This document shows positions 1,873 through 15,511 of a stretch of 32,000 bases of DNA, in pieces. A model generated the notes under the pieces. That model did not search any database, was not told the DNA's origin, and saw only the letters and a list, made by a program, of their open reading frames with translations. Location of the stretch: NCBI GenBank assembly GCA_048882505.1, contig JBHLRO010000016.1:60001-92000 (forward strand), in the 5' to 3' direction. Source of the DNA: Candidatus Thorarchaeota archaeon. Lineage in GTDB: Archaea > Asgardarchaeota > Heimdallarchaeia > Hodarchaeales > Hodarchaeaceae. A program made the translations under genes and the position numbers. Each line of letters opens with the position of its first letter. The stretch's first letter is position 1.

Positions 1873-3066
1873 ATGTCAGATCCAGTGGATAAGAAACGAT
1901 CGTATGATGATTTTCAAGACTCTTACACAAGAACTATGGAACGTCGGATTCGAGCTTTGGAAACAGAACGGCATTTACTCGAGATCCAACGGAATAAACT
2001 GGAGGAAGAGCGTGACAATCTCAAACTTGAATTAACTAAGTTAAGACAGCCACCTCTTTTCACTGGAACTGTACAAGAAGTTCTAGAGTCAGGAAAAGCC
2101 ATTGTCAAAAGTTCTACAGGCCCTTCATTTGTGGTCGTTGTTGATTCTTCAATAGCACGAGACTTACTAACCCCCGGTACCAGGGTAGCGCTTCATCAAC
2201 GCAATTTTGCTGTCTTGGAAGTTCTCCCCCAGAGTAGAGATCCTTTGGTTCGCTCAATGGAGATTCTTTCGAAACCATCAGAGACCTATACAGAAATTGG
2301 AGGGCTAAAAATCCAAATCCAAGAGTTGCGTGAAACGGTAGAATTACCTTTATTACAGCCTGATTTGTTTGAAAAAGTAGGAATCGAACCCCCGAAAGGT
2401 GTACTTCTCCACGGCCCACCAGGATCCGGAAAAACACTTATGGTTAAAGCGGTAGCTCACGAAACCAAAGCTCAATTCATTCGAGTTATTGGCTCTGAGC
2501 TGGTACAAAAATATATCGGTGAGGGAGCCCGCCTCGTCCGCGAAGTTTTTTCTTTTGCACGAGAAAACTCGCCGAGTATACTTTTCATTGACGAATTAGA
2601 TGCTATCGGAAGTAAACGATTAGACATTGCCACCAGTGGGGATCGGGAGGTTCAGCGAACTTTGATGCAATTACTTAGCGAATTGGACGGATTCTCCCCT
2701 CGTGGTGATGTCAAGATCATTGGAGCCACAAATCGGGTAGACATTCTAGATCCTGCACTCCTACGACCAGGGAGATTTGATCGACATATTGAGGTACCGC
2801 TCCCCAATCTGGAGGAACGATTAGAGATTTTTAAGATCCATAGTCGTTTCATGAATGTGAGTAAATCCGTTAGGTACGATTTTTTGGCCAATGAGACCGC
2901 TGATGCTTCAGGGGCGGATATTCGTGCTATAACCCAAGAAGCAGGGATGTATGCAATCCGAGAGAGGCGGACCATTGTGAATTTTGAGGATTTCAAGGAT
3001 GCTATCGATAAGGTCTTATCAAAAAGGCATGGTGAAATTCTCGCATCTAGGAACGAATATTTCTAA
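1873..3066 (+). CDS. pan: Proteasome-activating nucleotidase (AAA+ ATPase)
   Basis: N-terminal coiled coil, OB domain, Walker A GPPGSGKT, Walker B FIDELD, pore loop KYIGEG, SRH LDPALLRPGRFDR. The C-terminal EYF is compatible with an HbYX motif. Confidence 0.97.
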   Translation: MSDPVDKKRSYDDFQDSYTRTMERRIRALETERHLLEIQRNKLEEERDNLKLELTKLRQPPLFTGTVQEVLESGKAIVKSSTGPSFVVVVDSSIARDLLTPGTRVALHQRNFAVLEVLPQSRDPLVRSMEILSKPSETYTEIGGLKIQIQELRETVELPLLQPDLFEKVGIEPPKGVLLHGPPGSGKTLMVKAVAHETKAQFIRVIGSELVQKYIGEGARLVREVFSFARENSPSILFIDELDAIGSKRLDIATSGDREVQRTLMQLLSELDGFSPRGDVKIIGATNRVDILDPALLRPGRFDRHIEVPLPNLEERLEIFKIHSRFMNVSKSVRYDFLANETADASGADIRAITQEAGMYAIRERRTIVNFEDFKDAIDKVLSKRHGEILASRNEYF

Positions 3067-3099
3067 CTCCTTCGTTCTACTTTCATTTAAAGGGGAATC

Positions 3100-3591
3100 C
3101 TATTCATCCGAGAGAAGAGTGGAATGCTTGGTTTGGAATAAGACGTCTAGCAGGTTTTTGAATGCATTAACGGCAACTAGGTGTTCTTCACGAGGGTGAT
3201 GGAGTAGTTCTGGTTTCAACTGGGAAACAAGGGGGGTAACGAATTCATCCAAACTCACTGAACCATGTATCCAAAAGAAGAGAATCAATGCTTCAACACG
3301 ATCAGCCACAAAGTCCTTTCTCCCGCGTAATCCCAATGTCTCCAGCCATAATGATTTTCGGTATGCTTCGGATAGTATTGAGTCCGAGACTTTAGTTCCA
3401 GTTGTCTTCTTAAGTACCAGACTTTTTGCGATAGAGTAAATTAGGTTAACTAATGCATCTCCGAGTTTGGCGTTACCTCGGTCGAGAATAAACCCAGTTA
3501 AATCCCTATGCTCGCGCGAAGATAAAGTAATATTGCCGAGAGTGGCCCTATGTTCTTGAAGATCTGTGAATGTTGCCACCCTCGACTCCAA
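3100..3591 (-). CDS. Archaeal ribonuclease III-like (mini-RNase III domain) protein
   Basis: AKLGDALVNLIYS...KVSD..L...ADRVEALI matches the RNase III signature (GD...N, AD..EA). Lies directly downstream of rpoL. Confidence 0.8.
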   Translation of the reverse strand: MESRVATFTDLQEHRATLGNITLSSREHRDLTGFILDRGNAKLGDALVNLIYSIAKSLVLKKTTGTKVSDSILSEAYRKSLWLETLGLRGRKDFVADRVEALILFFWIHGSVSLDEFVTPLVSQLKPELLHHPREEHLVAVNAFKNLLDVLFQTKHSTLLSDE

Positions 3592-5699: not shown

Positions 5700-5813
5700 G
5701 TCGGGATATCCAAGCCTGGTATGGAGCCAGCCTGCTAAGCTGGTGAGTTTAAATTCAATATGACTAATCGTATAGGAGAACATCTCTCGGGGGTTCAAAT
5801 CCCCCTCCCGACG
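5700..5813 (+). tRNA. tRNA-Ser(GCT) with a 31-nt intron in the variable arm; mature 83 nt, no encoded CCA
   Basis: Acceptor GTCGGGA/TCCCGAC, discriminator G, D-arm TCCA-AGCCTGGTA-TGGA, anticodon arm CCAGC-CT GCT AA-GCTGG (anticodon 5734-5736), T-arm GGGGG-TTCAAAT-CCCCC. Confidence 0.95.
5753..5783 (+). other. tRNA intron (variable arm) with strict bulge-helix-bulge motif
   Basis: Central helix GTTT(5747-50)/GAAC(5778-81), 3-nt bulges AAA and ATC, paired flanks on both sides. Removal gives the variable arm T-GAGT-TTA-ACTC-TC. Confidence 0.88.
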
Positions 5814-5914
5814 TCAATCATTTCAAATGTTCAAGCACCGATTTTTCATACTAAATCAATGACTGAAGAATGACAAGACGGGCCCGATGAGATTCGAACT
5901 CATGACCCCTGCGT

Positions 5915-5943
5915 ATCTCCAAGGCCAGATTTTCCGGCCATTT
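5915..5943 (-). other. tRNA-Arg intron at canonical 37/38 (29 nt)
   Basis: BHB geometry with central helix CTGC/GGAG (one G:G mismatch) and internal hairpin AA(T)GGCCGGA-AAA-TCTGGCCTT. Confidence 0.85.
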
Positions 5944-5960
5944 CCGCAGCGCAGTACTCT

Positions 5961-6007
5961 AACTGGGAATAAATACGGACGTACTGAAAAAATCACGCCG
6001 CATAAAT
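5961..6007 (-). other. tRNA-Arg intron in the D-loop at 20a/21 (47 nt)
   Basis: Central helix CTGG/CCAG, bulges AT|A and TT|A, inner stem ATGCGG/CCGTAT. Relaxed (BHL-like) motif. Removal restores the D-loop AGCCTGGATA. Confidence 0.82.
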
Positions 6008-6058
6008 ATCCAGGCTAAGCCACGGGCCCAGGTTCTGGGTATCACAAACTGGGATCAG

Positions 6059-6065
6059 ATTTAAG
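6059..6065 (-). promoter_or_regulatory. Putative TATA box of tRNA-Arg
   Basis: CTTAAAT on the minus strand, 30 nt upstream of tRNA position 1. Confidence 0.45.
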
Positions 6066-6117: not shown

Positions 6118-7440
6118 TCAGCTTAGATCATTTACAATTCCGACTGCTATTGTTTGCCCCGAGTATCTGAGGATAAGCCGCCCAAGTTCGGGAAAATCTG
6201 CAAATTTCTCAACCACTAGGGGATTTTCCAAGATGAGGTCGACATCTACGAGTTCGTGTTCAAAAGCGATTGTTAACCTCCCTTCAAATTCGCGCGCGAA
6301 ATTTTCATGTTGTGGATTTTTCCTAAGAATTTCATGAATCTTCGAGATCTGAGCAGGAGCATATGATGCGCCGCAATGCATGACTACAGAGGAGCCTGGA
6401 ACAAAAGTACCTTCTAAAATGAGCAATCGTGCGCGTACAGTATATTTCAAAGAATAATTTTGCCCTTGAGGGGCAAGAACTATCCCCTCTTCCAATTTAT
6501 CCTTGTCTGTGTATCTCAAAAGAATGGAACCATGCTCGCCTGGATGGAGAGAATCGGCTTTCGCAGTTTGGATCCAAATCTCCTTGATTTCATCATTCTC
6601 TCCAGATGGTAGGATCATTACGGGATCACCATTGCTTAACGTTGCGCCAATCATTTTTCCCATTAACAACGTGCCAAAACCATGACGTTCGTCAAGATCA
6701 TACACGATAAATCTCCCAGTGGAATTACTATTTGCAGCAATCCCTTCCAACGAGTTTAAGGCCTCGATCAGGGTAGGCCCCTTATACCATTGAAGGTTAT
6801 CTGATGGTTGAGTTAAATTGTCTCCTGAGAACCCACTGATGGGGACGATGGGGATCCTATCCAAATATTTTGTCCAAGGGGATTGAATTTCCAGTATAAA
6901 CTGCTTTATCTTTGTTGCTGCGTCTGTGAAGAGTTCTTCACGAAAATCCACGAGATCCATTTTGTTTATTGCCACAATCAACTGGCTTATCCCTAATACC
7001 GATGCCAAGATAGCGTGTTCACGAGTTTGGCCCCCGGGACTTTGATCCTCTCCTATCTTCAAACCAGATTTCAGGTCGTTCGGAACTGCGCTAACTACCA
7101 ATACACAAGCATCAGCTTGAACCGCGCCTCGAATCATATTTTTCACGAAATCACGATGCCCAGGGGCATCAATGAGCATAAATCTGCGTTCCGAAGTTTC
7201 AAAGGGGAAAAAAGCGATATCTGACGTAATCCCACGTTGTCTTTCTTCAGGAAGAGAATCTAGGACGTATGCCCATTGCCACGAGTCCATATGATATTGA
7301 GTGGCTTCTTCTTTCAGTTTTTCCACCAATCTAGCATCTATGACGCCAATTTGAGCTAACATATGACCTAGTGTTGTGGATTTTCCATGATCTACATGGC
7401 CAATCCAAACCAAAGAAATGGTGGGCTTTTTTTTTACCAT
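6118..7440 (-). CDS. EF-1alpha-family translational GTPase paralog (HBS1/eRF3-like candidate)
   Basis: G1 GHVDHGKST, G2 RGITSDI, G3 DAPGH, GQTREH, G4 NKMD, G5 SGFSG and a three-domain layout. Domain II is diverged (GRFIVYDLDERHGFGTLLMGKM). Confidence 0.85.
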   Translation of the reverse strand: MVKKKPTISLVWIGHVDHGKSTTLGHMLAQIGVIDARLVEKLKEEATQYHMDSWQWAYVLDSLPEERQRGITSDIAFFPFETSERRFMLIDAPGHRDFVKNMIRGAVQADACVLVVSAVPNDLKSGLKIGEDQSPGGQTREHAILASVLGISQLIVAINKMDLVDFREELFTDAATKIKQFILEIQSPWTKYLDRIPIVPISGFSGDNLTQPSDNLQWYKGPTLIEALNSLEGIAANSNSTGRFIVYDLDERHGFGTLLMGKMIGATLSNGDPVMILPSGENDEIKEIWIQTAKADSLHPGEHGSILLRYTDKDKLEEGIVLAPQGQNYSLKYTVRARLLILEGTFVPGSSVVMHCGASYAPAQISKIHEILRKNPQHENFAREFEGRLTIAFEHELVDVDLILENPLVVEKFADFPELGRLILRYSGQTIAVGIVNDLS

Positions 7441-7534
7441 AAAACATTACCGATTTGCTAGAGAAACGGTTCAAAAGTAGAAATCTAAATTATCCTAATG
7501 TAAAAAAAGGGAAAAAGGAACTGGGAAAATGGCG

Positions 7535-9064
7535 TCAGGAGGTGTATTTTCCTCTCTCTATTTTCTGTACTACGCCCACAGCAACGGTTTTTCCCGAGTC
7601 TCTTAAGGCAAAACGACCTAATGCAGGCGATTTTGCCAATGGTTCAACCACAAGTGGACTCAATGGAGTCATCCATATCATTCCTCGCTGCTGAGGAAGG
7701 AGCTGATCCGCTTCTTGGATTTGTGTCACACGACAGGCGACTTGAGCGGTGCCACAATGCACGACAGGAGAATAATTTGTATGTATTCCCCACGCAACTT
7801 CCCCTTTCTTCTTCGCTTTTCCAAGTCCCCGAACAACAAGGACAAGAGACAAAAATCCGTCAACATTGGGTCTTAAAGCTTGCGCTGGGTCATTAGGATC
7901 ACTAAGTACTGCACCACGAATTATGTCCTTGGCTCCAACATTCTTAGCTTTGATGCTAAAGCCAATGTTGTCACCAGGAATGGCCTGGGGAAGAGTCTTA
8001 TGAAATTCCTCGATAGTTTTAACGGAGATAGGTACTGGTTCTATCGACTGTTTTGTTGGTGAAACAACCATTTCTGTGTTTGGTTTTAAGACTCCACTCG
8101 AGACACGCCCAGTAAGAACCGTACCAACGCCACTTATGTTAAGAGTCTGCTGGATTGGTAATCTAACAGGCTGTTTCATCAAAGCTTCTTTTCTTACGGC
8201 AGGAGACTCTAGGAGATCAAGAGCATCCAATAATGCGGGGCCTTCATACCAAGATAACGCATCGAAACCCGCCTTAACATCCTCGATTTCCTTGTCAAGA
8301 GAAGCTATAAATTCCGCATCTCCACTTCCAGCCTTGGCAGCAGCAACATGGCCTTCTAGGTTTTTGAGTGTAGCTTCTTTCGAAAGGAGATTAACCCCAA
8401 CCAAACCGCTAGTAGGAACATAATTGATTGCGTCTAGGTAGCGTTCTTTGTTTTCGATCTGTAGGGCACCCATTAATGTGGAAAAAGTTTGATGGATCGC
8501 AGTTTTGATCTGTTTAAACCTTTCTTGATCCCAATTAACATCATCCATCTTGTTAATTGCAACTACTATGTTGGTCACTCCAAGGGAGGTGAGAAGGAGC
8601 ATATGCTCGGTAGTCATGCCAATAACGTTAGCGTATTTACCAGTTGCCTCTCCAGTTCTTTTTGTACCATCCTCAAATTCCCCTTTCCGGGCTGATACGA
8701 CCAGGATAGCAGCATCTGCTTGGGATGCACCTGTAATCATGTTCTTAATAAAGTCACTATGGCCTGGCGCATCGATGAGATTGTAAACGTATTTCTTGGT
8801 CTTGAATTCCTGGAAAGAGATGTTAATCGTGAGGCCCCGTTCCCGTTCATCCATCAGAGGATCCAAAATCCAGGCATACGACCAACTTGCCATTCCTTGG
8901 GTTCGACTATCCTTGTAGTATCTTTCTGCGATCCGCCAAGGTTGTCTTTTCTTTTTGGGATCATGGATCTGACCGAGTAAGAACAACATGTGGCCCAGAC
9001 CAGTTGATTTTCCATGGTCGACGTGTCCTGTGACCACCAAATTCATTCTTTCGAGATCTGCCAT
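7535..9064 (-). CDS. tuf: Elongation factor 1-alpha, divergent, with insertions (likely the elongation-competent copy)
   Basis: G1 GHVDHGKST, G2 RERGLTI, G3 DAPGH, FIKNMITGASQADAAILVVSA, G4 NKMD. Conserved domain II (PVRLPIQ..ISGVGTV.TGRV, PGDNIGF) and domain III (LGRFALRDSGKTVAVG). GGTGA RBS. Confidence 0.85.
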   Translation of the reverse strand: MADLERMNLVVTGHVDHGKSTGLGHMLFLLGQIHDPKKKRQPWRIAERYYKDSRTQGMASWSYAWILDPLMDERERGLTINISFQEFKTKKYVYNLIDAPGHSDFIKNMITGASQADAAILVVSARKGEFEDGTKRTGEATGKYANVIGMTTEHMLLLTSLGVTNIVVAINKMDDVNWDQERFKQIKTAIHQTFSTLMGALQIENKERYLDAINYVPTSGLVGVNLLSKEATLKNLEGHVAAAKAGSGDAEFIASLDKEIEDVKAGFDALSWYEGPALLDALDLLESPAVRKEALMKQPVRLPIQQTLNISGVGTVLTGRVSSGVLKPNTEMVVSPTKQSIEPVPISVKTIEEFHKTLPQAIPGDNIGFSIKAKNVGAKDIIRGAVLSDPNDPAQALRPNVDGFLSLVLVVRGLGKAKKKGEVAWGIHTNYSPVVHCGTAQVACRVTQIQEADQLLPQQRGMIWMTPLSPLVVEPLAKSPALGRFALRDSGKTVAVGVVQKIERGKYTS

Positions 9065-15406: not shown

Positions 15407-15511
15407 GGGCCCATGGCTTAGTCTAACGGGTTCGAGAACCCTTAGGAGAAGCCTGGTTAAAGCGCTCGGCTGATAACCGAGAGATCCCCGGTTCAAATCC
15501 GGGTGGGCCCA
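15407..15511 (+). tRNA. tRNA-Ile(GAT) with a 30-nt D-loop intron; mature 75 nt
   Basis: Acceptor GGGCCCA/TGGGCCC, D-stem GCTT/AAGC, anticodon arm CTCGG-CT GAT AA-CCGAG (anticodon 15472-15474), T-arm CCCGG-TTCAAAT-CCGGG, discriminator A. Confidence 0.95.
15422..15451 (+). other. tRNA-Ile intron in the D-loop (best fit 15/16)
   Basis: Hairpin CTAA(C)GGGTT...AACCCTTAG. Central helix GCTT/GAGA (3 of 4 pairs), bulges AG|T and AG|C. Removal restores the D-loop AGCCTGGTTA. Junction ambiguous by 1-2 nt. Confidence 0.8.

Follow-up and report, generated by a model that had tools for sequence, protein, structure and literature searches.

A two-intron tRNA-Arg(GCG) gene of a Hodarchaeales archaeon and its probable copying into a sibling tRNA-Arg(CCG) gene

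Introduction

Asgard archaeal tRNA genes carrying multiple introns, including introns located in the D-arm, have been described (Valentin-Alvarado et al. 2024, PMC11291895; Goswami et al. 2026, bioRxiv 10.64898/2026.10.13.758758), with Jordi-, Frey- and Atabeyarchaeia as focal families. The tRNA-Arg(GCG) gene that we analyze here belongs to a member of the Hodarchaeales and shares the published features: two introns, of which the D-arm one is missed by standard annotation, a relaxed splice motif and an alpha/beta EndA. In itself, this gene is thus an ordinary and expected Asgard multi-intron tRNA and belongs to a known type. What is new is its apparent copying over a sibling Arg gene, tRNA-Arg(CCG), with both intron sites carried along.

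Copying of introns between tRNAs has been reported to be rare in Asgard archaea, concerning 1.5% of introns when at least 80% identity is required, and the route by which introns arrive was left open (bioRxiv 10.64898/2026.10.13.758758). Compared with the events of this census, the one proposed here is syntenic and supported by the exons, while its introns are about 66% identical and hence fall below the 80% threshold. Intron transposition is also known in Thermoproteales (Fujishima et al. 2010, as relayed in PMC4090602 and PMC4033280) where the intron moves and the tRNA bodies stay distinct. The present case is similar in having related introns in different tRNAs of one genome, multi-intron genes and an (alpha-beta)2 EndA, but differs in that the exons appear to have moved along with the two intron positions and the body of the intron, and with a change of anticodon. 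Indeed, instead of a shared intron in unrelated bodies, the exons of the two Arg genes show 7 differences.

Comparing tRNAs within genomes, Yona et al. (2013, PMC3868979) found anticodon switching in 1 of 40 archaeal species. The present case resembles anticodon switching and isoacceptor remolding (PMC3868979, PMC4981973 and PMC3923123), since the CCG gene is closer to another anticodon class and the change concerns position 34, the commonest site. Unlike the cases of Yona et al., it would represent the in-place replacement of a single-copy gene, in which position 34 is part of a splice helix. In the literature searched, which was not exhaustive, no archaeal case was found in which an isoacceptor gene had been overwritten in place and had received introns in this way.

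Structure of the tRNA-Arg(GCG) gene

The window, i.e., the whole stretch of 32,000 nucleotides that was analyzed, contains on its minus strand (6029..5879) a tRNA-Arg(GCG) gene composed of exons of 22, 17 and 36 nt separated by introns of 47 and 29 nt. Its features are as follows (window coordinates).

6059..6065, minus strand: CTTAAAT, a putative TATA-like box of archaeal type, 30-36 nt before the start of the mature tRNA, a function suggested by its sequence
6008..6029, minus strand: exon 1, 22 nt, positions 1-20a (5' strands of the acceptor stem and D-stem, and D-loop); recognized by ARAGORN once the exons are joined
5961..6007, minus strand: D-loop intron, 47 nt, at position 20a/21, with a relaxed hBH/BHL-type motif and an internal hairpin
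5966-5963, minus strand: CCAG of the D-loop intron, partner of C17-G19
5944..5960, minus strand: exon 2, 17 nt, positions 21-37, with the anticodon GCG at 5947-5945
5915..5943, minus strand: anticodon intron, 29 nt, at the canonical position 37/38, with a GC-rich internal hairpin
5920-5917, minus strand: GGAG of the 29-nt intron, opposite positions 35-32, with G34:G at 5947/5919
5879..5914, minus strand: exon 3, 36 nt, positions 38-73, with the G73 discriminator; CCA is unencoded

The joined exons form a sequence of 75 nt identified by ARAGORN as tRNA-Arg(gcg) with a complete cloverleaf; the interrupted gene was missed by default ARAGORN and by Rfam. At low threshold, where the ARAGORN output is mostly noise, the locus was called Arg(ccg) with a 66-nt intron, a candidate that we rejected as this CCG lies inside the intron hairpin and lacks U33. 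The two-intron organization, with a 47-nt D-loop intron and a 29-nt intron at 37/38, had been proposed in an earlier note made from the sequence and was borne out, this gene being the only GCG gene found in the genome. The note had named another, intronless Arg(GCG) gene as the observation that would speak against it; such a gene was looked for, and no second copy, intronless copy or exon piece was found in the assembly, which is 94.6% complete and may therefore miss one.

Regarding the anticodon intron, removal of the insertion at 37/38 restores an anticodon loop of 7 nt. The central helix comprises C32-G, U33-A, G34:G and C35-G, i.e., three pairs out of four, with G34 (5947) facing a G (5919) as the note had described. 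Two 3-nt bulges (G36-G37-A and A-U-A38) are flanked by the anticodon stem and the intron hairpin, although the energy model favors pairing of G36 and G37 with UU, which closes the 5' bulge. With G34 unpaired, the intron is not a strict four-pair BHB but is of the relaxed class (three of four pairs), which the Asgard census treats as permissive (bioRxiv 10.64898/2026.10.13.758758).

In the D-loop intron, the central helix formed by C17-U17a-G18-G19 with CCAG is perfect over its four pairs, and no intron helix stands directly beside the 5' bulge. This 4-bp helix, a single 3-nt bulge and a second site located in a loop correspond to the relaxed hBH/BHL type, and the BHL-like layout announced for this intron was recovered in the predicted fold. 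The whole precursor folds better than shuffled sequences (z = -3.0), and the fold containing both splice motifs (-58.4 kcal/mol) lies 0.4 kcal/mol from the free minimum (-58.8 kcal/mol).

Several neighboring features deserve mention. A tRNA-Ser(GCU) gene with an insert in its variable arm (window 5700-5813, plus strand) is convergent with the Arg gene across a 65-nt gap. Directly upstream of tRNA-Arg(GCG), tandem genes (window 6118-9064, minus strand) encode EF-Tu/EF1A-like GTPases of 440 and 509 aa, which are possibly CysN-like paralogues. Further away, tRNA-Ile(GAU) (window 15407-15511, plus strand) contains a 30-nt D-arm intron; its true start is 15407, the ARAGORN start at 15436 being wrong. 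Separately, an aEF-2 model gave no match at E 1e-150 in 24 Hodarchaeales genomes, with four control archaea passing, which reflects either a divergent EF-2 or a threshold effect.

The splicing machinery

Asgard archaea possess an (alpha-beta)2 EndA with a CSL/L1 loop, whose lysine K44 confers cleavage of relaxed motifs (Kaneta et al. 2018, PMC5829648). The genome studied (hereafter G000, G016 being its sister species, G022 the outgroup and other labels congeners unless stated) encodes two EndA genes, alpha (182 aa, C18:41065-41613) and beta (213 aa, C18:72020-72661), as well as RtcB. The alpha subunit aligns with A. pernix 3p1z_B (E 1e-41), retains the triad Y120/H128/K159 and has K39 matching the CSL residue K44, whereas beta lacks the catalytic His. 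As in the A. pernix (3p1z/3ajv) and S. tokodaii (2cv8) enzymes, we thus find the Tyr/His/Lys triad, the Arg/Trp recognition residues, a lysine aligned with K44 and a separate His-less second subunit, from which homology points to a comparable assembly in Hodarchaeales. The relatives of the catalytic subunit at 73-95% identity are mostly Heimdallarchaeota/Hodarchaeota records, including Ca. Hodarchaeum mangrovi, which places the host among the Hodarchaeales, as a Hodarchaeum-like archaeon.

At the gene level, a catalytic alpha subunit with triad and loop lysine together with a separate non-catalytic beta subunit is the signature of an (alpha-beta)2 EndA, and by analogy the enzyme is probably a heterotetramer of broad specificity. 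The subunit typing that the note had proposed as a check hence gave an alpha/beta pair with triad and CSL lysine in alpha. Its expectation that processing needs a broad-specificity endonuclease holds in so far as genes of this type are encoded, the specificity itself being assigned by homology. Such an (alpha-beta)2 EndA, with its crenarchaeal-type L1/CSL loop, would cut the precursor at both motifs and RtcB would ligate the exons.

Conservation among congeners and functional status

The mature Arg(GCG) 75-mer is identical across six species (G000, G016, G003, G013, G001 and G020) while the introns diverge, and all four pairs of the D-loop intron central helix are kept in the nine orthologues possessing this intron (9/9). 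Invariant exons, diverging introns and retained helix pairs are the pattern expected of a spliced and selected tRNA, and the gene is, on this comparative evidence, almost certainly functional. A pseudogene or an assembly error might be suspected from the metagenomic origin of the assembly, but the sole copy found has exons that do not vary between species, four other genomes also have a G facing position 34 and both helices are otherwise conserved, making this explanation extremely improbable.

Among the 19 congeneric GCG genes recovered, 16 have an intron of 27-30 nt at 37/38, two have one at 36/37 and one has none; we infer vertical descent of the 37/38 intron within the genus. Regarding the D-arm, the other congeners have a different intron near positions 13-15, or none. 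From incomplete assemblies, Arg(GCG) was not recovered in G018, G006 and G004, nor Arg(CCG) in G019, G020, G014 and G006.

Three particular situations were observed. In G002 and G007, the GCG anticodon intron has apparently shifted to 36/37 and its central helix is fully paired, including G34:C. In G000 and G016, Arg(GCG) is relocated, the neighbors that it has in other species mapping to C16 at ~6.4 kb and 48 kb, as several inversions beside the tRNA could explain. Finally, G010 has an intronless Arg(GCG) (C12 ~343219, minus strand) of which positions 1-16 and 45-72 are identical to its own tRNA-Ile(GAU); this identity in the acceptor stem and T-arm suggests a chimeric tRNA gene.

The mismatch opposite position 34

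Experimentally mapped splice sites of S. tokodaii include central-helix mismatches (PMC4307357). In 16 orthologous 37/38 introns, the base opposite G34 is G (5), A (5), U (3) or C (3), with at least five changes on the tree, while pairs 32, 33 and 35 are Watson-Crick in all of them (16/16). Moreover, half of the 14 canonical introns found in G000, an incomplete inventory for which three pairs were required, contain one non-pair in the central helix (7/14), including another G:G in Ser(UGA). The occurrence of all four bases, together with these mismatches, indicates that G34:G is ordinary drift and not a marker of recent import. The comparison shows the base opposite G34 to be unconstrained across these species, and the mismatch is very probably neutral. 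The register of the splice sites would be held by pairs 32, 33 and 35 and by the flanking stems, G34:G being tolerated.

A selected mismatch was also considered, which would slow down splicing, tune the supply of Arg(GCG) or block mispairing of the CUGCG sequence, repeated at 27-31 and 32-36, with a perfect intron partner. That 13 of the 16 orthologues are not G:C at position 34, and that the modeled occupancy of the central helix drops from 0.99 with C to 0.48 with G and 0.03 with A, would fit this proposal. However, all four bases are seen, the perfect pair exists in three species with the same anticodon arm and mismatches affect half of the canonical introns found in G000, so that selection on the mismatch appears highly unlikely.

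In the 14 canonical introns of G000, a small and filtered sample, position 32 is paired in every case (14/14) and position 35 is the least constrained (5 mismatches), which is reminiscent of the eukaryotic reliance on the A-I pair. The fixed C32:intron-G pair lies at the position of this A-I pair, a pair named in PMC4090602. For the neutral mismatch favored here, the orthologues constitute a natural four-base series opposite G34 in a background of three invariant pairs, and hence a ready test of how Asgard EndA reads its sites.

Relationship with the tRNA-Arg(CCG) gene

The earlier note had suggested searching the genome for an Arg(CCG) tRNA with a similar intron, and such a gene was found outside the window.

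C15:6762-6875, minus strand (locus L029): tRNA-Arg(CCG) of G000, whose counterpart in G016 is locus L048

Its introns occupy the same two positions as in the GCG gene and measure 10 and 29 nt. The 29-nt intron forms a perfect helix with C34:G, has the same GGAG partner and shares 19/29 positions with the GCG intron (about 66%). The D-loop intron of just 10 nt is identical in G000 and G016 and has a minimal hairpin-type splice motif; this is very short for an archaeal tRNA intron.

The gene occupies the third slot of a UCU-CCU-CCG cluster whose flanking genes are the same across congeners. At this slot, 14 other species have a CCG gene with a different body, the one usual among congeners, and no intron at 37/38 or 20a/21, and a search with the CCG pattern matched G016 only, the CCG stem of other species being different. 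The CCG exons of G000 and G016 differ from GCG at 7/75 positions. For G000, there are 13 differences from the outgroup CCG, 17-23 from the CCG exons of 13 other congeners and 25 from the neighboring CCU. The gene is thus closer to another anticodon class (7) than to its syntenic orthologues (17-23), as in remolding. A tandem-duplication origin of the Arg trio does not fit CCG, given the 25 differences from its CCU neighbor.

Outside the anticodon, the CCG gene of G000 agrees with GCG at 11 of 12 diagnostic columns, among them T25, A26 and A49, which are absent from both genes of the outgroup G022; five of these 11 columns also correspond to the state of both outgroup genes. It keeps the CCG-type A44 and C34. 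The CCG intron body matches the GCG intron of G000 at 13/22 and 14/22 positions (shuffle p 0.0008 and 0.00015) and matches none of 14 GCG introns from species other than G000 and G016 (p > 0.06), several of which the GCG intron of G000 still resembles (p 0.003-0.014). This 22-nt match ranks first among 91 within-genome pairs, without being significant after correction for 91, and the CCG intron is also weakly similar to the CCU intron (11/22, p 0.012).

Exons, intron positions and intron body together argue for copying from GCG to CCG, and, judging from these comparisons, Arg(CCG) of G000 and G016 was probably overwritten in place by a GCG copy. The scenario would be as follows. In the stem lineage of G000 and G016, a DNA copy of the GCG gene would have replaced Arg(CCG) in place, by gene conversion or copy-and-replace, with position 34 becoming or staying C. 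The recipient would thereby have gained both intron positions. A G already present in the intron would have formed a perfect pair with C34 in place of the mismatch, and the D-loop intron that came with the copy would have shrunk to 10 nt.

The note had read G34:G the other way round, as a hint that the intron moved in from another tRNA, the G being a fit for a CCG anticodon. A recent import of the 37/38 intron, or of its 3' end, from Arg(CCG) or another tRNA would account for a CCG intron of the same length in the same genome, with 19/29 identity and the same GGAG partner, and the 3' end of the intron may have been back-converted after the overwrite. Yet the presence of this intron in 16/19 congeneric GCG genes indicates that its arrival was not recent. 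Moreover, a G faces G34 in four other species, three of which (G008, G012 and G021) have a recovered CCG gene devoid of a 37/38 intron, and the sister species G016 has a U at this place in its GCG intron while having a G in its CCG intron. With all four bases occurring, the mismatch does not stand as a hint of import, and the recent-import reading is largely refuted and improbable. A related, intron-bearing CCG gene does exist, as had been anticipated, but the direction of transfer was probably the reverse of the one suggested, from GCG to CCG.

The note had also envisaged a change of anticodon after intron gain. As a recent footprint of CCG, this idea does not hold. In an ancient version, an intron-bearing CCG ancestor would have given GCG by a C34-to-G change, leaving G34:G as a relic; G000 and G016 would keep the ancestral CCG, and the other species would have remodeled theirs and lost the introns. 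This possibility agrees with G as the Fitch parsimony root state opposite position 34, and with GCG exons of the genus about equally close to the CCG (14-19 differences) and GCG (16-22) genes of G022. It is also compatible with the trees: three-gene RNA polymerase trees were used to root the genus and do not fix the root placement; three ML trees nest G000 and G016, one puts the pair basal (bootstrap 56), and an AU test does not reject the basal position (p 0.23), the exon tree being itself poorly supported. However, the ancient switch requires that two introns were lost and that the CCG genes of the other species went back from T25, A26 and A49 to what the outgroup has. It further predicts that the CCG intron of G000 should resemble the GCG intron of its own genome no more than those of others, the opposite of what was found, and is at odds with a GCG-type G31:C39 in G022 too and with G022 genes devoid of introns. 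We therefore regard it as unlikely. The preferred explanation as a whole, combining a functional two-intron gene, a neutral mismatch and an overwrite from GCG to CCG, is in our view rather probable.

Recurrence in Hodarchaeales

Overwriting between Arg isoacceptors appears to recur in Hodarchaeales. At the syntenic site of another congener, G010, the CCG gene looks derived from a different sibling.

C13:170994 (locus L295, ~2995-3125): tRNA-Arg(CCG) of G010, which looks derived from Arg(CCU)

Its exons differ at 8 positions from the CCU gene of the same genome, against 16-17 for the usual CCG genes, and it has introns at the two places where CCU has them (37/38 and T-loop), so that it looks like a CCU-to-CCG overwrite with two introns carried along. 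In G023, a further genome of this order (loci L273 and L274), Arg(CCG) and Arg(GCG) share their anticodon arm and an intron at 20a/21, possibly a third case of homogenization.

We lean towards the view that single-copy tRNA genes are repeatedly overwritten in place by the copy of an isoacceptor, followed by an anticodon switch, with introns hitch-hiking. What would permit such repeated overwriting is the tolerance of the splice helix, in which any base may stand opposite position 34. As overwriting moves only introns that already exist, it probably does not account for intron arrival in general. If true, overwriting would nevertheless be a concrete route by which introns arrive in Asgard tRNAs, and one that is missed by the 80% identity test of the 2026 census. 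The probable overwrite of Arg(CCG) would hence offer, among close relatives of eukaryotes, a traceable example of the way in which introns reach a further tRNA gene.
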